64,000 nucleotides of DNA, from IMG/VR virus record IMGVR_UViG_3300024350_000006; one strand, written 5' to 3'. How positions within the stretch are numbered: position 1 is the stretch's first letter; each line of letters begins with the position of its first letter. The notes beneath the pieces are model-generated. The model made no database searches. It was not told where the DNA came from and worked only from the letters and a program-made list of their open reading frames with translations. Shown here piece after piece: positions 2 to 63,939 of the stretch. This DNA is from a virus. The translations under genes and the position numbers were made by a program.

Positions 2-1845
2 ACAACTGTTCGTAGAGAAATAACTAACCTAGGACCTACCCCAGGATATAGTGCAGAAGTAGCTCTACTGCAAAGTAATAATGTAGCAATAACTGGTAAT
101 CTGCTACCAAGTGCAAATGTAACCTACGATCTAGGTAGCAATACTGCACGTTGGAACGATTTGTATATGTCTGGAACTACGATTTATCTAGGCAACATAC
201 AGTTGTCCAGCGCAGGTGGCGTATTAAATGTAACAGATAGTGCTAATAGCCCAGTTGCATCTAATGTATCCGCTCTAAATGCTACTGGCAATATTACTAC
301 ATCAGGCGGTTGGTTTATAGGTAACGGTGCCTTCCTAACAGGGCTACCAGCTGGATATACTAACTCAAATGTAGCTGCCTACTTACCAACCTACACAGGT
401 ACAATTACAGCGGCTACAGTTAATGCTGCCACTATTGGTAATGCAGGAGCTATTATTACTGGCACCAATGTTACAGCTACAAGCACAGTAACCGCTGCTA
501 CAGTAAACGCAGCCACAATTGGTAACGCAGGTGCAGCAATAACTGCTGCTAGTGTAAGTGCTGCTACAATTGGTAACTCAGGAGCCATTATTACTGGTAC
601 TAATGTTACTGCTACAAGCACAATGACAGCAGCAACAGTTAATGCTAATACAATTGGTAACACAGGCGCCACAATAATTGCTGGTACTGTTAGCGCAGGT
701 ACAGTAGGTAACACAGGAACTACCTTGGTTGGTACCTTGACAACTGCTGCACAGCCCAATATAACAAGTGTTGGTAACCTAACTTCACTAGTTGTTAATG
801 GCCCAACAACGCACGTTGGTAATATTGACATTACTGGTAACATTAATGTTTACAGTGGCAACCTAAACTACTCAAATGTCTCCAGCTTTGTCGTTGGTGA
901 TCCGCTAGTGTACTTTGGCGATAATAACCAATCTAACATTGTAGACCTAGGTTTTGTAGTTGGTTATAATCCTGGAGTTTACCAACACGGTGGTTTTGTA
1001 CGCGATGCAACTGATGGCGTTTGGAAACTATTTGGCAATGTTGTAGCAGAACCTACAACTACAGTAGACTTTACAAACGCAATCTATCAACCCATACAGA
1101 CTGGTGCTATCACTGCTAACGGTAATATCACTACAACAAGTAATGTTAGCGTAGGTAATCTATTATTGAGCGGTAACATTATAGATACCGGCGCTCTAGG
1201 CATTAACTCTGGTGCCAATGGTGACATAATACTAAATGCTGGTTCTGGAAGTGTTGTCCTTAATAGTGGCGTACTAAACGGACAAGCAAACACAGTTGGT
1301 AACATTGGTAGTAGTACTAGCGTCTTTAATACTATTTTTGCAGTAAATGGTAATTTTGGTAGCGGTACAGTAACACTAAACAACATTGTAAATGGTGGCG
1401 CTAATGCTACTGTAATATTGGTAGTAGCACTACTTACTTTAACACAGTGTTTGCAAAAGCAACCAGCGCACAATACGCTGACTTAGCTGAACATTATTCA
1501 ACAGATGCTGAGTACGAACCAGGCACAGTTGTGATGTTTGGTGGCGATAAAGAAGTTACAATTTGCGCTGAAGATATGAGCCGTAGAATTGCTGGTGTAG
1601 TATCCACCAACCCTGCTTATATTATGAATGCCGGCATCCTAGAAACTAGCGTGGCTGTGGCACTCCAAGGTCGAGTACCAACCAAGGTCAAAGGTCCAGT
1701 GCGCAAAGGTGATATGATGGTCAGTGCAGGTGATGGTTATGCGAGAGCCGAAGACGCTCCTGTACTTGGTAGCGTTATAGGTAAAGCACTTGAAAACTTT
1801 GACGGAGACCTAGGCGTAATAGAAGTAGTAGTAGGTAGAATTTAA
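2..1845 (+). CDS. tail fibre / virion structural protein, 5'-truncated by the window, apparent 1-nt frameshift near 1412
   Basis: Frame open from base 2; G/N/T/A-rich repeats (TAATVNAATIGNAGA); C-terminal 'ATSAQYADLAEHY...GTVV...GVVST.PAY.MN...VAL.GRVP.KV.G' domain typical of these tail fibres lies in another frame (ORF 1447..1845). Confidence 0.7.
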
Positions 1846-1904
1846 ACTTCTAGAACTTTGTATTAATAGCAGGGGCTAGGCCCCTGCTAAATTAAGGCTA
1901 TTAA

Positions 1905-2654
1905 ATGCAAAAATTATACAGAAAAGATTATCTAGGTGAGTATTTAATCACTGGCCTGGATCGTGTAGGCGGTAGAACAATCTATGATAGAGTGTGGATG
2001 CCCAACACAATTAACAATTACAATACTGGCTATGCGGTTGTATTAGGTAATGGTCCTAGCAGACAGTACCTTAATCCCCATACTGAAATGTATTACCAGC
2101 ATATGGGCGGAATGAACGCTAGTAAAAAATTAACAGTATATGGTTGCAATTCAGTTTTTAAAGAAGCAAAAGTACATTTTTTAGTAGTTAACAATCCAGA
2201 AATTGCAAGACAAACTGTAAATTCAGGATATGCTGACAATAATGTAGTACTAACAGGTAGGGCAAATATTGAACTTTTTCCTAATAAATTTCATTTAGTG
2301 CCCTATAATGTTAAAATGAATGCCGGTGCTATAGCTACATATCTAGCAGCATTTGATGGACATCACACTGTTTATCTAGTAGGAGTAGATCTAGACAATT
2401 ATCCTCGAGGGCAAAATTCAATCTATCACGATACACCAGGTTACCCAAACGGTCATAAACCCATTAATTACAGACGTTGGGTTCAAGAATACAAAGAAAT
2501 TTTTGAAACTTATAATGATGTAAACTTTGTAAGAGTGTCGCGTGGTGTTAACAGTCCTATTCCCGAAGAATGGGCTAGATTGCCTAACGTAGAACAAATG
2601 CCCTACGATAGATGGAAAAAGATAATTGATCTTGGAGCACAGGGAGCAGGCTAA
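1905..2654 (+). CDS. MptE-like / sialyltransferase-like fold protein
   Basis: VVLGNGPS, YGCN and YLVGVD motifs. Confidence 0.45.
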   Translation: MQKLYRKDYLGEYLITGLDRVGGRTIYDRVWMPNTINNYNTGYAVVLGNGPSRQYLNPHTEMYYQHMGGMNASKKLTVYGCNSVFKEAKVHFLVVNNPEIARQTVNSGYADNNVVLTGRANIELFPNKFHLVPYNVKMNAGAIATYLAAFDGHHTVYLVGVDLDNYPRGQNSIYHDTPGYPNGHKPINYRRWVQEYKEIFETYNDVNFVRVSRGVNSPIPEEWARLPNVEQMPYDRWKKIIDLGAQGAG

Positions 2655-3097
2655 TTCTGTTCTTGTTCTCGAATTTTATCTCTGTTTGCTTTTACATTAA
2701 AGGTTCGCCAAACTCCTGGGTGCAAAGGTTTAGGATAATCGTCTAATTTAACCCAGCAGTATCCCTTGTGCTCTTGATTTAGTTCAGGAACAAACTCTTC
2801 ATCTACTTTAATTAAAAAAGTATGATAGGTAAAATTATTTTTTGTATTATGGTAAGTTTCTATTGGTACAAAGATAGCATCACTAATACTGCCGCCAAGC
2901 TCCTCGCCAATTTCTCTACGTAATCCGTCAAGCACAGTTTCATTAGCTTCTATTTTTCCACCAACAATACCCCATTTGTTAGCTTGACGCCCATTGTTGC
3001 GCAACAAAAACAAATATCTCATAGTTTTTGTGCATAGGATAAGGGAACCACAATTAATACTGGGCTGTTGATCTGATTTTAAATTATTAACTGCCAT
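2651..3097 (-). CDS. NUDIX hydrolase
   Basis: Nudix box GGKIEANETVLDGLRREIGEELG; true start may lie slightly downstream. Confidence 0.85.
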   Translation of the reverse strand: MAVNNLKSDQQPSINCGSLILCTKTMRYLFLLRNNGRQANKWGIVGGKIEANETVLDGLRREIGEELGGSISDAIFVPIETYHNTKNNFTYHTFLIKVDEEFVPELNQEHKGYCWVKLDDYPKPLHPGVWRTFNVKANRDKIREQEQN

Positions 3098-4692
3098 TGG
3101 CCACCTTTGTAGATTCCTTCGTAGGTCTTAGACCAATTGCCATTGAAGAATCTATAATGCATATTGGTGTTAAGATTTACGACATATTCTACACTATCTG
3201 CCAGGGTACTGTCAAAACTTACTACCCAGTGTGTGCCTGTATATTGAATAATATCATTTGCGTGAGCAGTTATTCTTGTACCATCCACTCCTAACCAATT
3301 ATAACTGTAATCATCTACATCGTAGCCTTCAGCATCAACATTGTAGTCATAGGCTAACAAATAACGTGTGCCCTGAACGGGCTCAGGAAGTTCTTTGCTG
3401 GGTCTATTTTTCCTAGGATCAATTATAGCGTTTACTGGATTTAAGGTGGTCTGGGGTACACTGTCTATATCAGCAGTCCATAGTAAAACATTGTTATTGT
3501 TGGGGTGGTAGGCTACAGTGCCTACTAGTGTATTTTCACTGTCTATTTCATATTTAATTCTAGTACTACCGCTTACTAGATTACCATATAACACTACCAG
3601 ATCTCGCCAATTGTGACTTTGCCCTATTTTTTCTGGCATTGCAGTAAAGCTAAGTCTATCATCCACGCTTACATTAACAAATTTATTAACAGTAACCACG
3701 TTTTCGTCCACACTGACTACTGTTGTTAATACTCCACCTATATTGCTTACCATTCCGGGATTTATATCAAAACCGGAACTTAAGGTAATACTAGTATTAC
3801 TAGACGTATTTGCGGTTGCCCTTTTCCATATATTAACACCCAGGGGGTCTACCGTGGGACTAGAATATTTTACCAGTTGGATTTCCGCAGTGGGATTAGC
3901 GTAATCGGAACTGTTTACTTTAGTTACTAATATACTATAATCTAAAGGTGTATAGTAATTTCTAGTAAACAAATTACTGTCATCCAAGATAGCGTCTGAT
4001 ATTTCACCATTAACGTCATAGATACTTGAAATAATTTTATGTATTACTCCCTGGCGTTTCACAATAGCAGGTGGGCTAATCCAAATTGGAACTTCAAATG
4101 TCAAAGTACTAACATCAATATTGTCTCCAGTTCCAACTGGTACCGTTCTGTTAGTAAATCCTGTATCAGTTAACAGTACATAACTAAGGCTACTCCAGTC
4201 TATATAATTATCAGTGCTTTGCACCTCAATCGCTGGATTAAAGATACTACATATCTGTTCTAAAAGCTGAAGTTTTTGCTCAGTATTACTAGTCCAAATA
4301 TCTAATTTTATTGTCAGTGTGTAGGGCACTGGCATCATTCTTTCTACTGTGACTGCGTCCCCCTGTTGCGTAGTGTAGGCGCCGGTCAAAGGATCAATAG
4401 CACGTTGTGTTAGGTGTAATTTGCTTACAAAACTAGGATTCTGTACTCGGTTACGATCGTAACGCATAGCAGCAATATAAGCTGACATAGCTGGAACACT
4501 GTTTAAATAGTTTTCACTATTATTTTTAAGAATAGCTAATGCCTGTTTAGTGCCGTCACCATAAATTACAGGAACTCTTTTTAAAGACTTTACATTATCT
4601 GTATTAAACTCAACATAAAAATTACTTAAAAGCCTTATAAACTGTGTTAAAAAACGTCTTACCTGACCGTCGTAAAAATAACCGCTGTGCAT
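3079..4692 (-). CDS. tail sheath stabiliser / terminator (T4 gp15-like)
   Basis: N-terminal YFYDGQVRRFLTQF, VPVIYG, MPVPY..LDIWT..QKLQLLEQI..FNP; next to neck genes. Confidence 0.7.
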   Translation of the reverse strand: MHSGYFYDGQVRRFLTQFIRLLSNFYVEFNTDNVKSLKRVPVIYGDGTKQALAILKNNSENYLNSVPAMSAYIAAMRYDRNRVQNPSFVSKLHLTQRAIDPLTGAYTTQQGDAVTVERMMPVPYTLTIKLDIWTSNTEQKLQLLEQICSIFNPAIEVQSTDNYIDWSSLSYVLLTDTGFTNRTVPVGTGDNIDVSTLTFEVPIWISPPAIVKRQGVIHKIISSIYDVNGEISDAILDDSNLFTRNYYTPLDYSILVTKVNSSDYANPTAEIQLVKYSSPTVDPLGVNIWKRATANTSSNTSITLSSGFDINPGMVSNIGGVLTTVVSVDENVVTVNKFVNVSVDDRLSFTAMPEKIGQSHNWRDLVVLYGNLVSGSTRIKYEIDSENTLVGTVAYHPNNNNVLLWTADIDSVPQTTLNPVNAIIDPRKNRPSKELPEPVQGTRYLLAYDYNVDAEGYDVDDYSYNWLGVDGTRITAHANDIIQYTGTHWVVSFDSTLADSVEYVVNLNTNMHYRFFNGNWSKTYEGIYKGGQWQLII

Positions 4693-32782: not shown

Positions 32783-33310
32783 ATGGATATTTTAACCCTG
32801 GAGTTTACAGCAACTGAATCTCTGGGTTGGCCCAAGATTAAACTCTACGTTAATGACGATCTTTATGAGGACTTTAGTTTTGAATCGGACTATGCCAGGG
32901 TAAATATACCTCTTGATTTAATGGAGGGAGACCACGTATTACGAATAGAATTATACGGAAAACATCCCAATAGTACAGTCCTAGTTGACAATACTATTGT
33001 TAAAGATCAATCTGTAACATTGATAAATCTTTATCTTGATGACATTTTGGTCCCAGATCTAATTAAATATCAGGGAGTATATTTTACTCCCAATGGTCCT
33101 TATCCACAGGCGCTAACCTGGGCGTTAAATAATGCTTACTGGGAATTAAAATTTAAGTTTCCTGTCAAAACCTGGGTATTAGACGAAAAATTAAATCATA
33201 GTTTAAAATTCAATGAATTATATTCTGAAAACTATTCGGAAGAACGACAGAAAGTTATACTAGAAAAAATAGAAAAAATAGAAGCACTATTGCAAAATGT
33301 CAAAGTTTAA
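32783..33310 (+). CDS. hypothetical protein, similar to 23239..23733
   Basis: See paralog. Confidence 0.6.
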   Translation: MDILTLEFTATESLGWPKIKLYVNDDLYEDFSFESDYARVNIPLDLMEGDHVLRIELYGKHPNSTVLVDNTIVKDQSVTLINLYLDDILVPDLIKYQGVYFTPNGPYPQALTWALNNAYWELKFKFPVKTWVLDEKLNHSLKFNELYSENYSEERQKVILEKIEKIEALLQNVKV

Positions 33311-34835
33311 CAATGTCTTGATTATAACGTCAGGATTAATTTCTGTGGACAGGCCACCACCAGGCGCTGCATTTGTAGCTGGCGTCTGCGAGAATAACAA
33401 TATAAATTACAATTTTTTTGACTTTAATATATTTTTTAGAAATAATGTAAATGCAGATATCACAGAAAAAATATATGTAGCTAGATCAGAAAAGGATTTA
33501 GAAAATCTAGAACTAGCAAACCCTGGCTCCTTGAGTGTTCTTGAGAATGTTCTAGATCTAGCAGTGGAAAAAATAAAGTCATACCAAGCAGATCTTATTG
33601 CTGCAACAGTTTTTAGTGTGATGCAACACTTACTAGCTAAAAGGCTATTAGAACGTATCAAACATAATTTAGACATAAAAATAATAGCAGGTGGCCCTGG
33701 TGTGTCAGCGGGCTATGGGAATAAATCGCTAGTTGGCCAAGAAAAAAACGGTAGATCTTTTGGTAAGTTTCTTTTAGAAAATAATCTAGTTGATTATTAT
33801 GTTATGGGCGAAGGTGATGTCGTCTTAGATGAATTTTTTAAAGGCAACAATGTTCTGGGATTAAATGATAAGTCAACAGAATATGAAACTTGGGCTCCTC
33901 AAATAGATAATTTAGATGCACTGGCATTGCCTTCCTATAATAAAATAAATTTTCAGGATTATGTAAATCCTGGCAACCCTACTAGAACAGTGACAATCAC
34001 TGCTAGCCGTGGCTGTGTGCGTAGATGCACTTTTTGTGACGTGGGAGCTATTTGGAAAAAGTTCAGATTCAGATCAGGTCAAAATGTAGTACGGGAAATA
34101 ACACAAAATTATCTAAAACACGGAGTAACTGATTATTTTTTCTCTGATAGTTTACTAAATGGATCTCTTAAACAACTTAATGATCTCACAACAGGATTAA
34201 TAGATCTACATAAAACACATCCTGGTCTTAAAAATATAAAATATAGCGGTCAGTTTATTATTAGACCTAGATCACAGCATCCGGAAAAAATGTTTGCATT
34301 GTTAAAAGAGTCAGGGTGTAAACAAATACAGATAGGAGTAGAATCTGGTAGTGAACGTGTACGCGAACATCTTGGGAAAAAATTTAGTAACCAAGATATA
34401 GACTGGCATCTGGAAATGTGCAGTAAGTATAAAATAGAAAACTTTTTATTAATGTTTACTGGTTATCCTACAGAAACTTTAGAAGATCACAATGACACCC
34501 TTAACTTGTTAAAAAAATATCAAAAATATCTAATAGACGATACCATAATAGGTATAAGTCTAGATAGTCCACTTGTAATACTACCTGATACTCCTCTGTC
34601 TAATATGTCGACAGAACTAGGCATTCACTTGTATAATAATGAATACGGTAATCTTTGGACTGCTGACTCTAATCCCGAGCTAACTATTAAAGAAAGATTT
34701 TTGAGATATGCTGAGACAACTAAATTAGTTATGAAGCTAAGATATAATAGATTTCCCACAACATTGACCACTATGGAATACCAAATACACGATTTACTTA
34801 AACTTAATAAAAAGGAATTTGAAAATGAGTATTGA
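33297..34835 (+). CDS. B12-binding-domain radical SAM protein
   Basis: IIAGGPG, GEGD, SRGCVRRCTFC, GVESGS, GYPTET. Confidence 0.88.
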   Translation: MSKFNNVLIITSGLISVDRPPPGAAFVAGVCENNNINYNFFDFNIFFRNNVNADITEKIYVARSEKDLENLELANPGSLSVLENVLDLAVEKIKSYQADLIAATVFSVMQHLLAKRLLERIKHNLDIKIIAGGPGVSAGYGNKSLVGQEKNGRSFGKFLLENNLVDYYVMGEGDVVLDEFFKGNNVLGLNDKSTEYETWAPQIDNLDALALPSYNKINFQDYVNPGNPTRTVTITASRGCVRRCTFCDVGAIWKKFRFRSGQNVVREITQNYLKHGVTDYFFSDSLLNGSLKQLNDLTTGLIDLHKTHPGLKNIKYSGQFIIRPRSQHPEKMFALLKESGCKQIQIGVESGSERVREHLGKKFSNQDIDWHLEMCSKYKIENFLLMFTGYPTETLEDHNDTLNLLKKYQKYLIDDTIIGISLDSPLVILPDTPLSNMSTELGIHLYNNEYGNLWTADSNPELTIKERFLRYAETTKLVMKLRYNRFPTTLTTMEYQIHDLLKLNKKEFENEY

Positions 34836-39932: not shown

Positions 39933-40508
39933 ATGACAATCGAAAATTGGTTTAGTGTACCTGTTCTGTATTACGATTTGTCAGAGGAAGAATTTGAAAA
40001 AGTTCAGGATTCAATACAACTAGCTATGCCCAAGATTCTCGAATTAGATCTTGGAAATCCCTGGGGTGATTCAGTAGAAACTTCATTTAAGTACAAAACT
40101 GATTGTAACTTAATAGAAGATTTGGGGCTAGAAGTTTTGAAAACAGTTATAATGGATCAGGCAACTTTATTTTGCCAGTCCTATGATTTAAATTACACAT
40201 TAAGGCTTAAAGAAAGCTGGGTGAATATTTCTAAAAAACAAGGGTTCCAATACCCTCATAATCACCTTCCTTTTTTGTTTTCTGGTGTATATTTTTATCA
40301 GACTAATGGAGAAGATGGCTCATTGCAGTTTAAGAGCCCCAATCCCTGGTTAAATGCAATGACATATCCTTTTGGCTACGATAAAGTAACCTATCGTCCT
40401 ATTGAGGGTAGATTGATAATGTTTCCAGCATATTTGGAGCATCTAGTTAATCTAAATAATACTGCATCTACTAGGATATCTTTATCCTTTAATATAGAAT
40501 GTAATTAA
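39933..40508 (+). CDS. 2OG-Fe(II) oxygenase (phage type)
   Basis: SWVN...PHNH..FSGVYF...FPAYLEH.V...RISLSFN. Confidence 0.85.
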   Translation: MTIENWFSVPVLYYDLSEEEFEKVQDSIQLAMPKILELDLGNPWGDSVETSFKYKTDCNLIEDLGLEVLKTVIMDQATLFCQSYDLNYTLRLKESWVNISKKQGFQYPHNHLPFLFSGVYFYQTNGEDGSLQFKSPNPWLNAMTYPFGYDKVTYRPIEGRLIMFPAYLEHLVNLNNTASTRISLSFNIECN

Positions 40509-40513
40509 ATTAT

Positions 40514-40588
40514 CTGGCGTTCGTTCAACGGATAGGACAACAGTCTTCTAAACTGTGAATGGGGGTTCGATTCCCTCACGCCGGACCA
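40514..40588 (+). tRNA. tRNA-Arg(UCU)
   Basis: Cloverleaf, CCA. Confidence 0.92.
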
Positions 40589-40594
40589 TACACA

Positions 40595-41140
40595 ATGTTA
40601 CTAACTAATTTGCTGGATTTACCCACTGCAATTTATATAGAAAATAAACTAGGGGATGATTATTTTCCTTGGTATTGGAACGAAAATACACTCACAGATC
40701 AAGAAGTGAGCAGTTTAAAAAATTTTCAGTTTACACATAATTTTTATATCAACGGAGCAATTAATTCAACCTATGCACGTATGCTAGATCCCATACTTGC
40801 AAGTATTGAAAGCAAAGCAGATATAAAAATAAAAAATATTTTCAGGGCAAAAGCTAATTTGTTAACTAATATGCAAATGTCCGAGCAGGAGCTAGCTAAC
40901 GAAATACATACTGATCACGATTCTACTGACTATAGAAGTTTTGTTTATTATGTTTCCACTAGCGATGGCGACACTATAATATATGATGAGAATGAAACAA
41001 TTTTAGAACAGGCAAGTCCTGTGTTTAATAGTGGTATATTGTTTCCCTCTAGGTTACAGCACAGAGGAACACCACCCCTGCTGCACAAAAGACGCATAGT
41101 AATAAATTTTATATTGGAAATACAAAATGAACGAAACTGA
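40595..41140 (+). CDS. 2OG-Fe(II) oxygenase
   Basis: HTD, YYV..SDGDT, H.G......RIVINF. Confidence 0.8.
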   Translation: MLLTNLLDLPTAIYIENKLGDDYFPWYWNENTLTDQEVSSLKNFQFTHNFYINGAINSTYARMLDPILASIESKADIKIKNIFRAKANLLTNMQMSEQELANEIHTDHDSTDYRSFVYYVSTSDGDTIIYDENETILEQASPVFNSGILFPSRLQHRGTPPLLHKRRIVINFILEIQNERN

Positions 41141-44364: not shown

Positions 44365-44457
44365 ACTTGGGTAGTGTAACGGTAGCACGACGAGATTTAT
44401 AACCTCGATACGCTAGATGGGCGGTTAGAGAGGGTTCGAATCCCTCCCCAAGTACCA
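44365..44457 (+). tRNA. tRNA(UAU), Ile-like, long variable arm
   Basis: ACTTGGG/CCCAAGT acceptor, loop TT-TAT-AA, about 22-nt variable region, CCA. Confidence 0.8.
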
Positions 44458-45648: not shown

Positions 45649-45725
45649 GGGTGCGTAACTCAACTGGTTAGAGTAATCGGCTTTTAACCGATAAGTTGTG
45701 AGTTCGAGTCTCACCGCACCTACCA
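45649..45725 (+). tRNA. tRNA-Lys(UUU)
   Basis: Canonical. Confidence 0.95.
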
Positions 45726-45811
45726 TATAAAAACACATTCGAATATAATAATAATAGCGCCCGGGGCTATGGAGAGTATACGACTGTCCAGGAATGTGTT
45801 TTTATATGGTA
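45721..45811 (+). ncRNA. conserved-stem element B
   Basis: Perfect 20-bp stem TACCATATAAAAACACATTC / GAATGTGTTTTTATATGGTA. Confidence 0.6.
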
Positions 45812-46177
45812 CTAGTAAAAACTTATCTAGGGCCTAGCCCTATACACGGACTGGGAGTATTTGCAGATGAATTTGTCCCACAAGGAACTAAAATCTGGCA
45901 GCTAACACCAGGTCTAGATCTAGAGTGGTGTTATTTGGATTTTATTTCTCTACCACTCGCCGCACGAGAGTACATATTACATTGGGGATACAAAGATCCT
46001 GAATCTCAAATGTACAGATTAAGTTTTGACAATGACAGATTTATGAATTGGAGTCGAACTCCAAATGTCGTAGGTAATAGCAATGAAACATTTGCGGCTA
46101 GAGATATTGACAAAGGTGAAGAATTAACTTATCCATATTCCGAAGATTTATTAGGAGATCAAGATGCCAATGTATGA
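45806..46177 (+). CDS. SET-domain protein
   Basis: SPIHGLGVFA, RFMNWSRTPN, AARDIDKGEELTYPY. Confidence 0.85.
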   Translation: MVLVKTYLGPSPIHGLGVFADEFVPQGTKIWQLTPGLDLEWCYLDFISLPLAAREYILHWGYKDPESQMYRLSFDNDRFMNWSRTPNVVGNSNETFAARDIDKGEELTYPYSEDLLGDQDANV

Positions 46178-47822: not shown

Positions 47823-48866
47823 ATGAAAACTAGACCATTGAAAAATTATGGTGCTAGTGTTGGACTTGAAGCTTATGATATTGATTGGAACTCTCAAGAA
47901 GAAATTCTTGAACTAGGTCGTCTAGCAGCCAGTCAGTGTGTAGTAGTTGTCAATGAACACATTAGCACCGAGCAACTTTATAAAACTATGATTAACTGGG
48001 GCGATGTAAGTCATCCCATTATAACTGACTATGTAAGTCGTAAACTATTAACAGGCAGTCACTGGCGCGAGCTAACACTTAATCTGCGCTATATAACAAG
48101 TGAAGTTCCTGAACTTAAATCCGTAGCACTAGTAAGTTACCTTAAAAAAGAAAAAGATAGACCACGCGGTTTATTTTCCAATGGAGAACTTGACTGGCAC
48201 AGTGATCAATGCGCTATAGACGACGGACAACGAGTTATTGGTCTTCAAAGTATAAGTGATACAGCAAACAGCCAGACACAATTTTTATGCACACACGATG
48301 CCTACGAGTCATTAAGCTCGGATATGCGTAGTATGATCAAGGAATTGGTCTGTAAGCACCGTTGGTATGAGGGACTTATGGCACCTGGCTTAAACAGGGC
48401 TCAGTCAATGATGCTTAGATATAATATGGTACCCATTGACGGACTTGAAACAAACTTATATTCAGAAACTGCCAGCGGCTTAACTGGAATAAAAATTCCT
48501 AGTCATACCTTTGATGGATTTGTGGGTATGAGCCGTGAAGAAAGTATTAAATTACTAGATGAAATTAAATCAGTAGTCTACAACGATCGTTACGTGCATA
48601 CACAAGACTGGCAGGATGGGCAGATTGTGTTTATGGACCAAGAGATTACTCTACACAAACGACCAACTAATGTAAAAGACGGTGATCGTCGTACAATGGC
48701 ACGTAGTATTACCTATGTTAACTATTTGTACCCTGACAGCGCATACGCCATAAGAAGATCAACTTACAAATATCAAGGTTCAGTTTATACTGAAGAAGAT
48801 TTTGTAAAATTAGTTGATCAAGACCGTCGCACACAATATGAACAAGAATTGGAGTTTGCAGAATGA
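47823..48866 (+). CDS. TauD/TfdA-family dioxygenase (paralog 1)
   Basis: LDWHSD, TQF..T, W..G.IV.MD...TLH.R. Confidence 0.85.
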   Translation: MKTRPLKNYGASVGLEAYDIDWNSQEEILELGRLAASQCVVVVNEHISTEQLYKTMINWGDVSHPIITDYVSRKLLTGSHWRELTLNLRYITSEVPELKSVALVSYLKKEKDRPRGLFSNGELDWHSDQCAIDDGQRVIGLQSISDTANSQTQFLCTHDAYESLSSDMRSMIKELVCKHRWYEGLMAPGLNRAQSMMLRYNMVPIDGLETNLYSETASGLTGIKIPSHTFDGFVGMSREESIKLLDEIKSVVYNDRYVHTQDWQDGQIVFMDQEITLHKRPTNVKDGDRRTMARSITYVNYLYPDSAYAIRRSTYKYQGSVYTEEDFVKLVDQDRRTQYEQELEFAE

Positions 48867-49921
48867 AAATAAGACCATTAAAAAATTACCAGGGTAGCAT
48901 AGGTGTAGAAGTCTATGACATAGACCTCACACAGGACGATGAAATATTTGAGCTTGGTAAGCTAGTAGCAGATCAATGTGTGGTATTCATTGATCAGGGA
49001 GTACCAACACAACGGTTATACGATGTAATGACTCAGTGGGGAAGTCCTAGTCGAGCTCTAATCCATAACTACATAGTAAGTCAGAGACTAAGTGGACGCC
49101 ATTGGCGTGATTTATTCCTACAATTAGGTTACATCAATAATGGTATGGGTGAACTTGCTGGCGCAGTTAGTCGTGTTAGCTACCTAAAAGATGATCGAGG
49201 CCGGCCTAAAGGAATTTTTAGTAACGGAGAATTAGATTGGCACAGTGATCAGTGTGCATTTGATGATGCACCTCGTATGATTGGCCTAATGAGTGTGAGC
49301 GACAGTGCAGGTAGTCAGACACAGTTTATGCCCACACACGATCAATTTATGTCCTTGAGTTCAGATATGCAAAGTATGGTAAAAGAACTTGTAGTGCGTC
49401 ATAAATGGCGTGAAGGGGAAGAAGGATGTGCCCCGGGACTAAATCGTGAACAGACTATGATTATTCATTATAACGGTGTGCCACTAGACGGAATGGAAAC
49501 AAAGTTATACAGCGAAACAGTCACTGGACGCCCGGGGGTAAAATTCCCTCACTTTGATTTTGATGGGTTTGTGGGAATGAGCCAGGAAGAAAGCTGGCGC
49601 CTTTACCGTGAATTAAAGAAACATTTTTATGATGATCGTTATGTCTACACGCAGGATTGGCAGGATGGACAGATTGTGTTTATGGATCAAGAGATCACTC
49701 TACACAAGCGACCAACAAATATTCTAGATGGCGACAAAAGGATGATGCATAGGGTAATAACTTATCTTAATAAAATTAATCCCAACATTCAACCAGCGCA
49801 GACTGTCCGATATCGTGGTGAGATTTACACTCACGATGAATTTGCAAAATTAGTTGATGCAGACCGTCGCAGACAATATGAACAGGAACTTGATGAACAA
49901 GCAAGACTCCAACCATATTAA
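48863..49921 (+). CDS. TauD/TfdA-family dioxygenase (paralog 2)
   Basis: Same motifs; tandem duplicate. Confidence 0.85.
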   Translation: MKIRPLKNYQGSIGVEVYDIDLTQDDEIFELGKLVADQCVVFIDQGVPTQRLYDVMTQWGSPSRALIHNYIVSQRLSGRHWRDLFLQLGYINNGMGELAGAVSRVSYLKDDRGRPKGIFSNGELDWHSDQCAFDDAPRMIGLMSVSDSAGSQTQFMPTHDQFMSLSSDMQSMVKELVVRHKWREGEEGCAPGLNREQTMIIHYNGVPLDGMETKLYSETVTGRPGVKFPHFDFDGFVGMSQEESWRLYRELKKHFYDDRYVYTQDWQDGQIVFMDQEITLHKRPTNILDGDKRMMHRVITYLNKINPNIQPAQTVRYRGEIYTHDEFAKLVDADRRRQYEQELDEQARLQPY

Positions 49922-50615
49922 TAACACAGATAGGCCCTTGATATTTCTTGGGTCTAACAGTGTTATGGAAAAATATACCGAGCTCTGCGAAGAGCTTGGT
50001 ATTGTAGTAGCTGGTCTGTTAGATAATGATTACTGGGGTAATACCGCCGAGCTTGGTGGAGTCAAGGTCCTTGACACAGAAAAAAACATTGATCAGTACT
50101 TAAATAATTATAATTTTTTCTGTGCCACTAACTGGAACCCTATTGATGATCCCATAATGGTGAGAAACAGACAAAAAAGACAGTATCTAATAGATTTGGT
50201 AAGACAAAAAAACATACAATGTATAAGCCTAGTAGATCCCACTGCTAGAATTTCCAAATATAGTAGACTGGGCAATGGGTGTTTCATTGATTGTCACGTT
50301 ATGGTTGAAAGTGGCAGTATAGTGGGCGACTTTACTAATATCTATGGACAGGTACAAGTGGGCCATAATACCACCATTGGTGAAAACTGTGTGCTGCAAC
50401 GAGCAGTAGGACTAGCCTCAGCTCAGATCTTAGAAAATGATGTCTATCTAAGTTCCGGAGTTAAAGCCCTTAAGCCTGGTGTCAAGATCAGTCAGGGAAC
50501 TTTTGTACACGAACTCGTCTACTTAGCTCGAGGCACAGTGTCCAATGAAGTAGTACAGTTTGGCACCAACAATACCAAAAGAGTTGAACGACCTTACAAT
50601 AGTGTATTAGGATAA
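49893..50615 (+). CDS. left-handed beta-helix acyltransferase (PglD/NeuD-like)
   Basis: LVDPTARIS..LGNGCFI...VGHNTTIGENC hexapeptide repeats. Confidence 0.75.
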   Translation: MNKQDSNHINNTDRPLIFLGSNSVMEKYTELCEELGIVVAGLLDNDYWGNTAELGGVKVLDTEKNIDQYLNNYNFFCATNWNPIDDPIMVRNRQKRQYLIDLVRQKNIQCISLVDPTARISKYSRLGNGCFIDCHVMVESGSIVGDFTNIYGQVQVGHNTTIGENCVLQRAVGLASAQILENDVYLSSGVKALKPGVKISQGTFVHELVYLARGTVSNEVVQFGTNNTKRVERPYNSVLG

Positions 50616-50636
50616 TGTTATAAACAAGAGGAAATT

Positions 50637-50882
50637 ATGAAAGAACAAATTAAGCAAGAAGTCAAACAAATCTTGGCCAAGCAGTTTGGTAAAACACTAG
50701 ATGAAATTTCCGATGATCTGGATCTAGAAACTCTAGGCGCAGACAGTCTAGACACAGTGGAAATTGTAATGGAACTAGAACATCATTTTCAAATCGTTAT
50801 TGAAGAAGATGAATACGAAGGCAAGTCTTCACTGACCAGCATTGTAGACCTTGTCTGCAAAAAGAAAAATCTTGAGTCCTAA
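50637..50882 (+). CDS. acyl carrier protein
   Basis: LGADSLDTVEIVMELE phosphopantetheine site. Confidence 0.9.
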   Translation: MKEQIKQEVKQILAKQFGKTLDEISDDLDLETLGADSLDTVEIVMELEHHFQIVIEEDEYEGKSSLTSIVDLVCKKKNLES

Positions 50883-52392
50883 AAAGTATCAGGTCGTTCT
50901 GTTTACAGATTTTACTGACGAGGTTTTAACTGTTAAAGCTCTAGGTGCCTATAAAATAGCCAGCGCACTACGCGAACAGGGGTATAGTTGTCTAGTAGTT
51001 GATAAACTTAGTCAGTGGACTCTTGAAGAGATTACTTCACTTGTCAACCTTGCAGTGGGACAAGAAACACTGTTTGTGGGCTTTAGCACGACTTTTCTAA
51101 AAAATTTAGACAGGATAGACAACCTATTTTTTGGTTATGCGCCTAATCTCAGTATTTTCCCACAGGGTAAGGATTTTGAAAATAGCGTAATTAAAGAAAT
51201 ACACAAGCTTAGTCCTGATTGTAAAATTTTACTGGGTGGCCACAAAATTAATCAGGACTGCGCCAACAAGAATGTCAACATAGTGGTAAGAGGTCTAGCT
51301 GAACAGGCCATTATGGATGTTGCTAACAGCCTTAGTAACAAAACTGAGATTCCCAATAGTTATAGGAATATTCACGGTGTAACGGTGGTACATCGCGATC
51401 AGGAAAAAACCTATGATTTTGCCAACAGTGCAATGCACTGGCAGGCTAGTGATATTTTAAACTATCGTGTACTGCCTTTTGAGCCAGCTCGTGGTTGTAT
51501 TTTTAATTGCAGATTTTGTAGTTTCCCACAACGTGGCAAAAAAACTCTAGACTACGTACTAACAGAAGAAATAATCTATAATGAGTTACAGAGCAATTAT
51601 GACAGATTTGGTATTACTACCTATCAGTTACTAGATGATACGTTTAATGACAGCGATCACAAACTTGATAGAATGTTATCAGTGGTTAAGCAGTTAAGCT
51701 TTCAGCCAGTATTCTGGTCCTACAACAGACTGGATCTGCTAGCTACCAAGCCCGAGCGCATTAAAAAATTATTTGATATTGGCCTAAGGGCCACTAGCTT
51801 TGGTATAGAAACTCTGAAAAAAGAGACTGGACTGGTAGTAGGTAAAGGCTTTGATGCTGCTAGACAGATACAGACTGTCAAGGATATTAAAAAAACCTAC
51901 GGCAATAATCTCTTGATGCACGGACTGTTTATAATAGGTCTACCACACGAAACTCTAGAAGAAGTGCAGCATACATTTGACTTAATAGATAGTGGTGAGT
52001 TTCCCTTACACTCGGCTTATTTCGAAGCATTGATGATAGCCAAGCCTAACCAGTATTTTTTACAGAGCGATTTTGACAAAAAATGGCCTGAGTATGGATA
52101 CAGAGATCTAGGTAGTGAGGGTCAGGGCATACTCAACTGGGCTAACGATCATATGAACTTTGACCAGGCTAGAGAAAAGAAAACAGAACTAGTGACTAGG
52201 TTGCAGCAAAGCAGTCGTTACCATATCCCTGGGCAAACCGCCTGGGCTCTAATGAACTATAATAATTTTACGCTGGACAGAGTGCAAAATTTAAAAAACA
52301 TAGAAATAGACTGGCAGGAAGTCAAGGACAGCAAACAGGCTTTTGTAACAGAATACAAGCAGAAAATGCTTGCTTTTTTAGCAACTAATTAG
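50851..52392 (+). CDS. B12-binding-domain radical SAM protein
   Basis: ILLGG, RGCIFNCRFC, DDTFND, FGIET, IGLPHET; start uncertain. Confidence 0.85.
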   Translation: MSAKRKILSPKKYQVVLFTDFTDEVLTVKALGAYKIASALREQGYSCLVVDKLSQWTLEEITSLVNLAVGQETLFVGFSTTFLKNLDRIDNLFFGYAPNLSIFPQGKDFENSVIKEIHKLSPDCKILLGGHKINQDCANKNVNIVVRGLAEQAIMDVANSLSNKTEIPNSYRNIHGVTVVHRDQEKTYDFANSAMHWQASDILNYRVLPFEPARGCIFNCRFCSFPQRGKKTLDYVLTEEIIYNELQSNYDRFGITTYQLLDDTFNDSDHKLDRMLSVVKQLSFQPVFWSYNRLDLLATKPERIKKLFDIGLRATSFGIETLKKETGLVVGKGFDAARQIQTVKDIKKTYGNNLLMHGLFIIGLPHETLEEVQHTFDLIDSGEFPLHSAYFEALMIAKPNQYFLQSDFDKKWPEYGYRDLGSEGQGILNWANDHMNFDQAREKKTELVTRLQQSSRYHIPGQTAWALMNYNNFTLDRVQNLKNIEIDWQEVKDSKQAFVTEYKQKMLAFLATN

Positions 52393-52465: not shown

Positions 52466-52708
52466 ATGTTAACAACTAAACAAGCACGTGAAATTGTTAA
52501 TAAACAAATTAAATATTTTCAGAGCTGGACGGATAAAAGTCGCGCTAGTGATGGTGAAGCGATGCGTAATGTTTGTTTTCACGTGGGCTACCTTACTAAA
52601 GAAAGTGATATTGCTAAAATTAAAAATAGTCTAGAGCTTGCTGGGCATACTGGCAAGACTAGGTTGATGGGTGGTTATCTGCGTTTAACCAACTTGGAAA
52701 TAAATTAA
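52466..52708 (+). CDS. small early protein
   Basis: AAGGAG RBS after the promoter. Confidence 0.65.
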   Translation: MLTTKQAREIVNKQIKYFQSWTDKSRASDGEAMRNVCFHVGYLTKESDIAKIKNSLELAGHTGKTRLMGGYLRLTNLEIN

Positions 52709-52720
52709 TTAAAAAAGTAG

Positions 52721-52749
52721 TTGACAGTAATTGCACTAGATGATATAAT
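52721..52749 (+). promoter_or_regulatory. consensus sigma70 promoter
   Basis: TTGACA-17-TATAAT. Confidence 0.9.
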
Positions 52750-52755
52750 ATAAGA

Positions 52756-52805
52756 CTGCACTAAACGATGCAGCCCAAGTAGTAGAAAAAAGTTCTATAA
52801 CAATT
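52756..52805 (+). promoter_or_regulatory. boxB/boxA-like antitermination signal
   Basis: CTGCA/TGCAG hairpin, then GTTCTATAACAATT. Confidence 0.5.
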
Positions 52806-52816
52806 AGTAAAACAAT

Positions 52817-52900
52817 GCCCTGGTGGTGGAATGGTAGACACGCTAGTCTTAGGAACTAGTATCGCAAGGTGTGGGAGTTCGAGTCTCCCCTGGGGCACCA
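52817..52900 (+). tRNA. tRNA-Leu(UAG)
   Basis: Long variable arm, CCA. Confidence 0.95.
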
Positions 52901-53125
52901 TATTAAAATATATTAGGTTACCTAGCCAGTAGGGGGCCTAGAAGAGGATAACCACTTGACGGAGTGGCTCTTGCTAGGTCTCACGAAACCTTGAGATAAT
53001 ATCAGGAGGACGCTGGAACAACTAGGAACGTAATGTGTGACACAGACAAATCCGTGGACGGCACGGTTGGGCAGAGTTCAAAGGCTGCGATCTCTGTGAA
53101 GCATCCTAATATATTTTAATATGGT
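52897..53125 (+). ncRNA. conserved-stem element C with 187-nt structured cargo
   Basis: Perfect 21-bp stem 52897-52917 with 53105-53125. Confidence 0.6.
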
Positions 53126-53127
53126 AC

Positions 53128-53291
53128 AAGACTGTTCATATAACACTGCAATGGGATATGACAGGCTGCGTAAGTGTATTGGCTGGCACAGAAGCCCCAG
53201 TAGCGGAGAGTTGAAGCACTTGCAGGTGTGGATGAGTTCCGTGACCGGGCGTCTAGGTTGGGTTCGAATCCCATCGCATTTGTTTGCACCA
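53128..53291 (+). ncRNA. tRNA-like RNA of unknown class
   Basis: TGGG-TTCGAAT-CCCA T-arm and ACCA end, but no cloverleaf. Confidence 0.45.
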
Positions 53292-53426
53292 TATTGAAGC
53301 ACATTTCTGTCATTGCCGTGCCAGCTTCACGGTGAGTACAAGAGTACGGAAGTAGCTACCCGACAGGTTGTACAAAGTTACAAGTGGGTTAATGACAGCC
53401 CCTTGGGAGTGTGTTTCAATATGGTG
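53287..53426 (+). ncRNA. conserved-stem element D
   Basis: CACCATATTGAAGCACATTT / GAGTGTGTTTCAATATGGTG. Confidence 0.6.
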
Positions 53427-53427
53427 G

Positions 53428-53456
53428 TTGACATTAAAAGAATTTAGCTGTAATAT
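53428..53456 (+). promoter_or_regulatory. sigma70 promoter of the giant RNA
   Basis: TTGACA-17-TAATAT. Confidence 0.75.
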
Positions 53457-53462
53457 AGATAC

Positions 53463-54347
53463 TTAGGGAGTTTAATCTCTTGTTAGGCGGTTCGCCGTCT
53501 AACTAAGGATAAGTGGCGTGAGTCACCCAAAGCAGAATCCTCCTACAGGACTGCGCCAGAGATGGTCCAGTTAAACAAGCCTGCTCACTACCGCGAGGTA
53601 GCGATCACTGATAAGACCGGTGGTTGTAACAATGAAGCTGGTGTAGTGGAAAGAACTTGTATCGACTAGCCCGCAAGGGAACTAGGGTGCAAGGAAAGTA
53701 ACAGGTGGTGCTGACTTCACTACAAAACCAACCAGTTAGTTGGTATGAGAAAGGGTAGTGCATTTGTCCAAGGTTTCGCAGCCAAGGGCTTGTGTGCAGT
53801 ATGAATGGTACTTGGGGCTGCTGTGAGGCGTCACAAGAATCGTGAAATACTACTGAGTAGCCGGCAGGCGAAAGGTACGTGGTGTGTTGTATCGTGTATT
53901 CCAAAAGAGTATGCGGCAACTGGAGCAGCACATCATAGTAGGTTGATATAGCTCATTGGTAGAGCAACAGTCCTTTTAAACTGTAGGCAGTTGGTTCAAA
54001 TCCAACTATCATTAAACAAAAACGCAAAGACTGCTCCGGTTGTATGTGAAAAGCATCTAACACTTAGGGCGTAAGCTAACTAAGTTCAGTCTAACCCGCA
54101 AGGTGAAACTGATTTGTACTAGAAGATTCGTAGCTCGCAAGGCTTAATGGACCGCAAGTTCAACGGGTAATAAGGTACAGAGTAGCATACAATGACAAGA
54201 CTACTGCCTGTCTTTAAACGGCGATGCTGCAAGCAGACTGGATCACATAGCGATATGGATCTTGTGGATGTCGTGGAGAAGATTGGCTCGCAAGGCTGAC
54301 TATAATACCCGAGGTGCTTGTAGTTAAGATGTAATCTCAGTCTTAAC
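53463..54347 (+). ncRNA. GOLLD-like giant structured RNA
   Basis: About 885 nt with no credible ORF; many GNRA (GCAA, GCGA, GAAA) hairpins; AGGTGGTGCTG, GAGTAG and terminal GTAATCTCAG segments recalled from GOLLD; tRNA-array context. Confidence 0.7.
53942..54014 (+). tRNA. tRNA-like (Lys-like) domain embedded in the giant RNA
   Basis: D arm GCTC/GAGC, ACAGT/ACTGT stem with 8-nt loop CCTTTTAA, T arm; no CCA. Confidence 0.7.
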
Positions 54348-54438
54348 ACTTTCTAAAACACATTGTAGTGGATTTCACAAGTATGAGTCGCATTCTAAAG
54401 AGTGCCCTTGAGATTGGATATAGTGTGTTTCAGAAAGT
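54348..54438 (+). ncRNA. conserved-stem element E
   Basis: ACTTTCTAAAACACATTGTA / TATAGTGTGTTTCAGAAAGT. Confidence 0.55.
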
Positions 54439-54440
54439 CA

Positions 54441-54631
54441 AGAATCCGGTTACTACTTTCCTAAAAGTAGCGTATGGCACACGACAAGGCCCGGTGGCTA
54501 GGGCACCGTTAGCGTTACTAGAGACAGACGACCTAGCAGCGTGGACACTTCGTCGGCCGTCTGCCAAACAGTGTTCGGACAGGGTAACAACTCCAGGATA
54601 GGGGCGACCGTGGAAAAGCGTGGCCTAACCA
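54441..54631 (+). ncRNA. unrecognised structured RNA related to 45279..45476
   Basis: Shared GGAC.G.GTAACA..C.CAG...GGGG motif. Confidence 0.45.
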
Positions 54632-54632
54632 A

Positions 54633-54791
54633 TATATTAGCAAGTGTTATCGATGAAACATTGGGTATCGTAAACTGATCATTTACTATGCGGGCCTAAC
54701 TGGCGTGGAACAGGTCCTGACATAACCAGCCATACGCTCTGGAACGGAAGCACCGGACTCCTAAATTGGCACGATAGCACTTACTAATATA
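54633..54791 (+). ncRNA. long-stem element F (divergent arms)
   Basis: 20-bp stem 54633-54652 with 54772-54791, one mismatch. Confidence 0.5.
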
Positions 54792-54803
54792 ATACTAATA
54801 TAA

Positions 54804-54878
54804 GGTTCCATAGTATATCGGTTAGTACACCGCCCTGTCACGGCAGAAGGAGGGGTTCGACTCCCCTTGGGACCGCCA
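54804..54878 (+). tRNA. tRNA-Asp(GUC)
   Basis: G73, CCA. Confidence 0.92.
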
Positions 54879-54953
54879 AGTTTCTCTACACTACATCTAA
54901 GCCTTGATAGGTAGGGGAAGGCAGGTGGCTTAGGCTTGCCGAGAGTTTTTATT

Positions 54954-55030
54954 GCACCGTTAGACATCTGGTTGAGGTCACCACCCTTTCAAGGTGGCTA
55001 GAGCGGGTTCGAATCCCCTACGGTGTACCA
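54954..55030 (+). tRNA. tRNA-Glu(UUC)
   Basis: Cloverleaf, CCA. Confidence 0.9.
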
Positions 55031-55141
55031 AGATGCACAGTGTCGCTTTACGCTGTGGCAGGACGGCCTCTGTATCCTAGGACTCAAGCCTCTCAGACTG
55101 CAACTAGAGTTCTCGCAAAAGAACATAGCAAGATTTAGATT

Positions 55142-55228
55142 GGGTGCTTAGTCCCGTAATGGTATCGGGGGCAGACTGTAAATCTGTTGTCTTTGGCCTT
55201 CTCTGTTCGAATCGGAGAGCACCCACCA
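55142..55228 (+). tRNA. tRNA-Tyr(GUA)
   Basis: Long variable region, CCA. Confidence 0.88.
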
Positions 55229-56214: not shown

Positions 56215-57267
56215 ATGAAACCCAGTCATTTTTATTTCGACGATAAAATATTAGAACGCGAACAATTACTTTTTAAACAGGCAAGATATCTAGGACACGA
56301 ACTATCTGTCAATAACTATCGCACACTTCCACAGGACAATAGTGGTAGAGTGTTAGTTAAAAACAACAACGGTATAGAGTGTATAGAAAATGTCTGCCGC
56401 CACCGCCAAGCAGTAATGCTAACAGGCAGTGGAGAAACATCAAACATTATTTGTCCATTACACGGCTGGACCTACAATCTAGAAGGCGAACTTGTTGGCG
56501 CCCCACATTTTGATCCTTGCCCTAATAGACCACTAAGAAAATTTAGCACACAGAGCTGGAACGGTCTATTTTTTGAATCAGGTAAGTTTAACATTGTTCG
56601 AGATCTTATTGGTATGAGAGCTGGTAAGTATTTTGATTTTAACAATTACCAGTACCATAGCACTCAGGAACATCATTGTGATTACAACTGGAAGACCTTT
56701 ATAGAAGTCTACCTAGACGATTATCACGTGGTACCTTTCCATCCTGGCCTTGGTAATTTTGTAGATTGTAATAAACTAGACTGGCAGTTTGGTGACTGGT
56801 ATAGTGTGCAGACTGTGGGAGTTCATAATGAATTGCGCACTCCCGGTACACCAGTTTATCGTCGCTGGCACGATGTATTAATGAATTATCGTAAGGGACA
56901 AATACCTGAATTTGGGGCAATATGGCTGACCATCTATCCTAATGTAATGGTGGAATGGTATCCTGAAGTTTTAGTAATTTCTAGTCTGTGGCCGGAAACA
57001 CCACAGCGCACAAAAAATATTGTTGAATTTTATTATCCCGAGGATATAGCTTTATTTGAACCTGAGTTTGTTCAAGCTCATCAGGCTGCCTATATGGAAA
57101 CCTGTTATGAAGATGATGAAATAGCAAGGCGTATGGATCAGGGTAGATGTCATCTTAATAACAATAATTATAGTGATTACGGACCTGTACACAATCCTAT
57201 GGAACTAGGTCTAGAATATTTTTACAAGTATTACAACAATTATGTTTTTGGTTTATTTGGCGAATAA
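56215..57267 (+). CDS. Rieske non-haem iron oxygenase alpha subunit
   Basis: NVCRHR...CPLHGWTY; NWKTFIEVYLDDYHVVPFH; EDD. Confidence 0.92.
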   Translation: MKPSHFYFDDKILEREQLLFKQARYLGHELSVNNYRTLPQDNSGRVLVKNNNGIECIENVCRHRQAVMLTGSGETSNIICPLHGWTYNLEGELVGAPHFDPCPNRPLRKFSTQSWNGLFFESGKFNIVRDLIGMRAGKYFDFNNYQYHSTQEHHCDYNWKTFIEVYLDDYHVVPFHPGLGNFVDCNKLDWQFGDWYSVQTVGVHNELRTPGTPVYRRWHDVLMNYRKGQIPEFGAIWLTIYPNVMVEWYPEVLVISSLWPETPQRTKNIVEFYYPEDIALFEPEFVQAHQAAYMETCYEDDEIARRMDQGRCHLNNNNYSDYGPVHNPMELGLEYFYKYYNNYVFGLFGE

Positions 57268-62727: not shown

Positions 62728-63288
62728 ATGAAAAAAGACGAAAATTTTGATGCTAGGCAACGTATTGAATTAAAGTTACTGGAAAATTCCACACATTATA
62801 TCTACGGTGAAATTAACTCAGAAAACATAGCTGAAGCAATAAAATGGATTCTTTATGAAAATTTGCAAGCCAAAGAACAAAAAACACTGACGTTATATAT
62901 TAACAGTATAGGGGGAGATCTTTATGATGCCTTCGCTCTAATAGATGTTATGAAGAACAGCCCACATACTATCAGGACCGTGGGCATTGGGTCAGTGATG
63001 TCATCAGCATTTCTAATTTTTTCTGCAGGAACAAAGGGGGAACGCTGGGCCAGTGCCAATGCAAGTTTTATGAGTCATCAGTATTCTGACAATCTCAGTG
63101 GCAAGCATCACGATCTCAAGGCCACGATGAAAGACGGAGAACTTATGAATCAGCGTATGATTGATCTGCTTAAAACAGTCACCGGGCTACCCGCAAGCAA
63201 GGTTAAATCTAAATTATTACCACCCACGGATGTTTATCTGACTGCACAGGAGATCATTGACCTTGGTGTAGCGGATCATTTAATATAA
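62728..63288 (+). CDS. ClpP-like protease subunit
   Basis: LYINSIGG, G..MSSA, FMSHQ, D.YLTA.E....G..D. Confidence 0.85.
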   Translation: MKKDENFDARQRIELKLLENSTHYIYGEINSENIAEAIKWILYENLQAKEQKTLTLYINSIGGDLYDAFALIDVMKNSPHTIRTVGIGSVMSSAFLIFSAGTKGERWASANASFMSHQYSDNLSGKHHDLKATMKDGELMNQRMIDLLKTVTGLPASKVKSKLLPPTDVYLTAQEIIDLGVADHLI

Positions 63289-63864: not shown

Positions 63865-63939
63865 ACTTCGGTGGCAGAATGGTTGATGCTCCCATCTCTA
63901 AAATGGGCTAAATGGGTTCGAATCCCATCCGAAGTACCA
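63865..63939 (+). tRNA. amber suppressor tRNA(CUA)
   Basis: ACTTCGG/CCGAAGT acceptor, CCCAT-CT-CTA-AA-ATGGG anticodon arm, T arm, ACCA. Confidence 0.9.

Follow-up and report, generated by a model that had tools for sequence, protein, structure and literature searches.

An RNA of about 885 nt, encoded by a large T4-like freshwater phage, genuinely belongs to the known GOLLD family and is expressed, and the tRNA-shaped domain carried in its linker is probably retained as part of the GOLLD RNA in a capacity other than decoding. The RNA was examined in its genomic setting within the window, by which we mean the whole 64,000-nt stretch of viral DNA analysed here (IMG/VR record IMGVR_UViG_3300024350_000006). 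GOLLD RNAs are among the largest non-coding RNAs of bacteria and phages and form cages made of RNA only; we know of no function established for them.

We propose that the phage would transcribe the ~885-nt GOLLD from its own promoter inside a tRNA array, and that the RNA, by homology to two solved GOLLD RNAs, would assemble into a many-copy RNA-only cage with its central linker facing the interior. Within the clade of this phage, the linker would always hold a single tRNA-shaped module, clamped at its base by a conserved helix of ~10 bp. The module appears to have retained the full cloverleaf core and to have lost the two top acceptor pairs and the CCA tail, both needed by a working tRNA, and is presumably not charged. 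Remaining covalently attached to GOLLD, it would act as a tethered mimic, present once in each chain and about a dozen times in each cage. The anticodon-type loop of the mimic may represent a fast-evolving surface that is still bound to resemble an anticodon loop, the 8-nt loop of the window being a real allelic state of that surface and not a reader of four-base codons. The most likely class of partner for such a mimic would be a factor that recognises the anticodon loops of tRNAs.

A GOLLD RNA expressed within a phage tRNA array

The 3' part of the unit matched the complete Rfam GOLLD model (RF02032, model positions 1-416 of 416; cmscan) with 214.4 bits (E = 3e-59), well above the gathering score of 150 bits, and the name GOLLD-like, given in the original prediction from the letters alone, is thereby borne out. 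The 416 nt upstream of this match correspond to the 5' domain of published GOLLD RNAs, which is their less conserved region (PMC12286853), and the RNA has the large 5' domain that marks membership among GOLLD RNAs of ~800-900 nt. Conservation extends over the whole 885-nt unit: nhmmer recovered 62 distinct full-length copies from freshwater phage/viral and metagenome contigs, with homologues aligning over query positions 4-883, and the open reading frames overlapping the unit were short, unconserved and spurious only. A non-coding unit of this length had been predicted, as had its richness in GNRA loops, and both descriptions hold, with five of the 14 CGCAAG sites of the window (GCAA tetraloop hairpins) lying inside the 885 nt (Table 1).

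For other Rfam families, positions 52600-55200 gave sub-threshold, chance-level matches only (E up to 1). A 16-mer scan of bacterial genome contigs returned at least 120 loci, which we regard as chance matches since GOLLD was found by nhmmer in none of the matches listed. The phage record collection held no near-identical record for the window, the only match being a chance-like one of 45 nt.

The window encodes a T4-type tail sheath, a gp15-type sheath stabiliser and a T4-type terminase, pointing to a large T4-like phage. GOLLD sits within a 25-kb tRNA gene array comprising 29 tRNA-type genes at 39.7-64 kb (ARAGORN), 28 of which are free-standing, so that the occurrence of GOLLD RNAs near phage tRNA genes, noted in the original prediction, applies at this locus as well. 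Metabolic-type genes are interleaved with the array (33297-34835, 39933-41140, 45794-46177, 47823-52392, 56215-57267 and 62728-63288). They code for two radical SAM proteins (one with a sub-threshold match to a B12-binding domain), two TauD-type dioxygenases, two 2OG-Fe(II) oxygenases, a Rieske ring-hydroxylating oxygenase, a SET-domain protein and a ClpP protease.

Directly upstream of the unit lies the predicted sigma-70-type promoter, with a perfect -35 hexamer, in agreement with the earlier claim that the RNA has a promoter of its own. A promoter-like match with the same spacing was present in 10/34 distinct upstream regions of homologues. The other 24 of these 34 regions had no promoter-like site, and at several of the loci concerned (e.g. 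L034, L282 and L255) GOLLD comes immediately after a tRNA, an arrangement suggestive of co-transcription with the array.

RNA-library depth reached about 270-4600 inside the GOLLD unit. In the upstream flank (53250-53469) it was 0 in X15 and 0-7 in X16, and just downstream (54350-54437) it was 0 in both. Since depth is high inside the unit and close to zero in its flanks, GOLLD is present as a discrete, abundant RNA and not as carried-over DNA. RNA contigs cover positions 53478-54312. The RNA contigs of two runs end at 54310 and 54312, 31 nt short of the 3' end of the Rfam GOLLD match, where DNA contigs continue; in one run, adapter letters abut this stop, and such contigs cannot define the ends of the RNA.

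Table 1 Features of the GOLLD locus in the window (coordinates are window positions)
Feature	Position	Strand	Basis or remark
Sigma-70-type promoter, TTGACA - 17 nt - TAATAT	53428-53456	+	10/12 consensus matches; predicted start near 53463
Whole GOLLD RNA gene (predicted extent)	53463-54347	+	nhmmer homologues; RNA-library depth
Variable 5' domain, outside the Rfam model	53463-53878	+	Conserved along its length in close homologues
Conserved 3' part, including linker and tRNA-like insert	53879-54343	+	RF02032 match
Clamp helix closing the linker, 5' strand	53919-53928	+	53917-53928 in the original prediction
tRNA-like domain	53942-54014	+	cmscan, ARAGORN, alignment covariation
Acceptor GUUGAUA / UAUCAUU	53942-53948 / 54007-54013	+	Read from sequence; G1.U72 and U2xU71 mismatch
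D arm GCUC-AUUGGUA-GAGC	53951-53965	+	Read from sequence
Anticodon stem ACAGU / ACUGU	53967-53971 / 53980-53984	+	Read from sequence
8-nt anticodon-type loop CCUUUUAA	53972-53979	+	Sequence; DNA and RNA contigs
T arm GUUGG-UUCAAAU-CCAAC	53990-54006	+	Read from sequence
Discriminator A, then AACAA, no CCA	54014	+	Read from sequence
Linker motif AAAAACGCAAAGACUG	54018-54033	+	Invariant in 25/25 aligned relatives
Clamp helix, 3' strand	54031-54040	+	54031-54042 in the original prediction

Structure of the tRNA-like domain and its linker

The tRNA-like fold that had been predicted inside the linker was matched by the Rfam tRNA model (RF00005) with 59.3 bits and labelled 'tRNA-???' by ARAGORN. In a 25-sequence alignment of relatives, pairing was kept in 100% of cases for the D stem, 96.8% for the anticodon stem, 98.4% for the T stem and 99% for the inner four acceptor pairs, and acceptor positions 1-2 were paired in only 42% of cells. 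Covariation of the stems was strong, with many changes on both sides of a pair; the observed values were reached by 0/500 shuffles, and sliding the partner columns lowered pairing to 30-43%. Covariation among homologues, on which the original prediction had made itself depend together with a GOLLD match, is found. The acceptor stem is absent from the minimum free energy (MFE) fold, and its first bases overlap the conserved GOLLD motif GUAGGUU in most of the clade. A tRNA-like domain occupies the same place in 32/32 homologues from viral contigs.

Enclosing this domain, a helix of 12 bp had been proposed (53917-53928 with 54031-54042), consisting of 11 Watson-Crick pairs and one G.U. The helix is present here and in the MFE fold, but only its inner 10 bp are kept among the 25 relatives. 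Pairing reaches 95% in the central 8 bp, where three pairs have changed on both sides, and the next 2 bp are paired and invariant, whereas the outermost 2 bp are paired in just 7-8/25 and were rejected as part of the conserved element. The last three bases of the invariant linker motif open the 3' strand of this clamp, and the motif agrees with the Rfam consensus AAaAAAGCAAAAGUCU.

The insert differs clearly from the free tRNAs of the same phage. CCA is encoded by 27/28 free tRNAs and not by the insert. All seven acceptor positions are paired in 26 of the 28, the remaining two having a mismatch at 1-72 only, and the insert alone combines the lack of CCA with an internal acceptor mismatch. The frayed, CCA-less acceptor end noted from the sequence is thus confirmed (Table 1). 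Among the features of a functional tRNA, the insert has the cloverleaf and lacks the 7-nt loop, the 7-bp acceptor and the encoded CCA. A normal free tRNA-Lys(UUU), not similar in sequence to the insert, is encoded at 45649-45725, and at seven further loci where enough of the array is visible, a free copy of the insert's isotype likewise occurs.

Further members of the array deserve mention. A free-standing tRNA with the amber-reading anticodon CUA (ARAGORN 'Pyl'), a 7-bp acceptor and an encoded CCA lies at 63865-63939 (+); the open reading frames of the window appear intact under the standard code, and a homologue locus (L111) has a cta tRNA at 4636. The tRNA-Ile(UAU) at 44365-44457 (+) is 93 nt in size, unusually long for Ile, with CCA and a 7-bp acceptor. 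At 53240-53292 (+), a T-arm-like GGUUCGAAUCC is followed by ...UUUGCACCA; neither ARAGORN nor Rfam called a tRNA or tmRNA there, RNA depth was 0-4, and the element could represent a fragment of a tRNA or else an acceptor-type piece that escaped recognition.

A distant subclade of homologues (L111, L233, L242, L268, L295, L317 and L280) has linker inserts with a 7-bp acceptor (UUGCAAA type) followed by CCA, which from their sequence look like true tRNA genes.

In two metatranscriptomes, both edges of the tRNA-like domain of the window are crossed without a break by RNA contigs, which extend beyond them by far more than 31 nt. Each of these bridging contigs forms one record, for which one depth figure (about 590) is given. 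Because they bridge both edges, an unprocessed form of GOLLD exists in which the domain and the 3' domain form one unit; such contigs show neither the RNA ends nor the share of processed molecules, and partial excision is compatible with them.

A real and fast-changing anticodon-type loop

The extra base in the loop had been flagged for confirmation in the original prediction, and it proved to be real. The stretch was found in about 14 riverine/freshwater DNA runs and six metatranscriptome runs, of which four runs were compared. Two of these were DNA runs, whose contigs (53703-54499 and 53572-54550) were identical to the window without gaps; the contigs of the two RNA runs (53893-54312 and 53694-54310) were likewise identical and gap-free, with no indel in the loop. 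The window itself may derive from one of the compared DNA runs; the remaining runs constitute independent support. The metagenome locus L301 has the same tRNA-like sequence. A sequencing or assembly error, considered as the origin of the 8-nt loop, was rejected given the base-for-base agreement of two DNA and two RNA contig sets.

To place this loop among its relatives, 55 distinct inserts were pooled from viral and metagenome matches. The 7-nt loops comprised CUGUUAA (Asn type, 11 distinct inserts), CUUUUAA (Lys, 7), CUAUUAA (AUU, 4), CUCUUAA (Lys, 3), CUUCUAA or AUUCUAA (Arg UCU, 5 together), and a dozen or so further sequences, each in one to four inserts. Loops of 8 nt occurred in 8/55 distinct inserts: CCUUUUAA in the window, CUUUUUAA with two distinct bodies, CUUUUGGA in two inserts, and CUUUAGGA, UAUUCAAA and UAUUUGAA. 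The body type of the window, as defined by its anticodon stem, was itself associated with four loops (AUUCUAA, AUUUCGC, CUCUUAA and CCUUUUAA). As judged from this comparison, the 8-nt loop is one of many states of a loop that changes fast throughout the clade and not a unique feature of the window.

Among 38 insert pairs with bodies no more than 10% different, which are not independent and give nominal significance only, the loop showed 0.26 differences per site and the body 0.053, a rate about five times higher in the loop. The GOLLD RNAs of Caulobacter phages Magneto and phiCbK differ at 8/915 positions, five of which are consecutive and correspond to loop positions 33-37; the loop reads CUCUUAA in Magneto and CGUCCUA in phiCbK. 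At the same time, U33 was kept in 45/47 seven-nt loops and a purine at position 37 in 45/47, which indicates that the loop is not drifting freely. The distribution of anticodons was a sensible one, with UUU in AT-rich freshwater phages and CUU in Magneto, whose genome is GC-rich.

Among the RNA runs, loose ends were seen at 53952-53966, where several GOLLD variants from the river agree with the window as far as the D arm and from there continue into other inserts, with loops CUUUUAA and CUAUUAA and, in one case, a match to the AUUCUAA-type body. By these loose ends in the RNA libraries, GOLLD variants with other loops are seen to be expressed in the same river samples.

A kissing partner of the loop elsewhere in its own GOLLD was not apparent, with 202 complementary five-mers observed against 192, and 57 six-mers against 51, when loops were shuffled among sequences. 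The best bin, a candidate internal pairing site at 53693-53704, was a conserved GAAAGUAACAG motif that remains constant while the loop changes, and such a partner is not supported.

Possible roles of the domain and relation to known systems

Several points tell against a non-decoding mimic. Canonical anticodon-loop features and sensible anticodon patterns are also expected of working tRNAs; the distant subclade, with its CCA-bearing inserts in the same position, implies that real tRNAs do occur in the linker; and contigs reveal neither the ends of the RNA nor its processed share. That the domain of the window is itself excised, given CCA and charged, serving as a Lys-type +1 frameshift (four-base) decoder through its 8-nt loop, is nevertheless highly improbable, and of the three roles offered in the original prediction it is the least likely. 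Such a role would fit the good tRNA score, the reality of the loop and its recurrence in eight distinct inserts, the occurrence of the classic extra-U form CUUUUUAA with two distinct bodies, and the complete tRNAs in the linker of the distant subclade. It is opposed by the missing CCA, by an acceptor whose pairs below the U2xU71 and G1.U72 positions are A-U except for one G-C and which is unformed in the MFE fold, by RNA contigs in which the domain and GOLLD are joined, by the free tRNA-Lys(UUU) starting at 45649, and by the long open reading frames of the window, which the standard code reads without interruption; a scan of 20 window proteins revealed no CCA-adding enzyme. An inert relic, that is, a former linker tRNA in decay with a freely drifting loop, we consider very unlikely. 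The loss of the acceptor top and CCA and the tolerance of odd loops (G33 in phiCbK, A34, the 8-nt loops) could be read in this way, but a relic is contradicted by the covariation seen in the alignment, the three inner stems and the inner acceptor having been kept through many compensating changes. The domain is, moreover, kept in every one of the 32 clade members from viral contigs, and the retention of U33 and of a purine at 37 is unlike drift.

A more specific version of the tethered mimic is that it acts as a decoy or bait, its many copies drawing in host anticodon-loop factors such as the anticodon nucleases of anti-phage defence; we hold this to be possible, on balance unlikely. The loop would then evolve fast owing to an arms race, which agrees with its rate of change relative to the body under retention of U33 and purine 37, and with the block of change between Magneto and phiCbK that is confined to loop positions 33-37. 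Most inserts resemble Lys, Asn or Arg(UCU) loops, and known anticodon nucleases, PrrC, colicin D and colicin E5 among them, target these isotypes; the insert also duplicates a free tRNA of the same phage. On the other hand, an 8-nt loop would copy a natural target poorly, the isotype bias comes from related sequences and could be explained by ancestry or codon demand, and no recognisable tRNA-repair or defence gene was found near GOLLD among the same 20 proteins. Taken to its full extent, with the loop as a specificity surface under diversifying selection, cages presenting a dozen or so baits that mislead host anticodon-loop factors, and 8-nt loops as escape or trap variants, the bait reading is similarly unlikely, and if true it would give GOLLD RNAs their first function. 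Unlikely, too, is a role as a processing signal, by which RNase P and the 3' tRNA-processing nuclease would split GOLLD and the clamp helix and tertiary contacts would join the pieces. The strictly kept cloverleaf core and T arm, which RNase P recognises, speak for this, and the conserved clamp of ~10 bp would hold the halves paired after a cut. Against it, both junctions are spanned by RNA contigs in two runs, at the single depth figure given above, conservation within the domain is lowest at the acceptor top, by which the cleavage site is set, and the solved env-38 GOLLD makes a cage with a plain 42-nt linker (PMC12286853).

Both the GOLLD family and tRNA-like inserts embedded in its linker are already published, and the present locus is a further member with an unusual, real loop. 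The GOLLD linker is located inside the cage, and tRNAs are 'sometimes present' in it (PMC12286853). The RNA of the window resembles the GOLLD RNAs of RF02032 (Weinberg et al. 2009; the env-38 14-mer and the Streptococcus agalactiae 12-mer) in its full-length model match, its variable 5' and conserved 3' domains, its location in a phage tRNA array and its variable linker. It differs from other GOLLD RNAs in belonging to a clade of freshwater T4-like phages, in an insert with a frayed acceptor and no CCA and, for the window copy, in the 8-nt loop. The mycobacterial GOLLD of M. aubagnense contains an internal pseudo-tRNA that yielded no excised product on northern blots (PMC6582537). Like the insert studied here, it is a tRNA-shaped element inside GOLLD judged non-functional; it comes from another host group and differs in sequence, and neither loop hypervariability nor an 8-nt loop is described there. 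A Mycolicibacterium GOLLD carries a tRNA-Phe in J13/15, as cited in PMC12990946.

Outside the GOLLD family, comparison can be made with two kinds of molecule. The +1 frameshift suppressor tRNAs (sufD, sufG and similar) have 8-nt anticodon loops and are complete and charged. They share with the insert a loop enlarged by one base, whereas the insert lacks CCA and an intact acceptor and apparently remains inside a 900-nt RNA. The mascRNA of MALAT1 is a tRNA-like module cut from a long RNA by RNase P and RNase Z; there, too, a cloverleaf is part of a long non-coding transcript, but here RNA contigs bridge the domain. Within 52600-55200, the Rfam mascRNA model gave sub-threshold matches only, located on neighbouring true tRNAs.

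A single locus adds little, and the comparison across the clade is more useful. In a large clade of freshwater and alphaproteobacterial phages, the insert is present throughout, the parts needed for charging are lost and the loop outpaces its scaffold several-fold but retains the look of an anticodon loop, a pattern that singles out the loop for probing GOLLD function. Among cultured phages, the closest relatives are the Caulobacter phiCbK-like phages and Sinorhizobium phage Phosso, whose GOLLD RNAs score 165-187 bits and have a homologous insert at the same site, with the same clamp and linker motif. They differ in an acceptor stem reduced to 4-5 bp and, for phiCbK, in a 7-nt loop with G33 and U37. 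The culturable Caulobacter phages Magneto and phiCbK, which differ almost only in this loop, would offer a testable system. In the records of these phages, GOLLD is unannotated, and the insert is annotated only as 'tRNA-Lys' or 'tRNA-Gly'. This applies to Magneto (L001, 1102-2016) and phiCbK (L002, 1102-2016), with GOLLD scores of 165-169 bits, the 'tRNA-Gly' of phiCbK being the insert. In both of these genomes, a permuted tmRNA adjoins GOLLD on the other strand.
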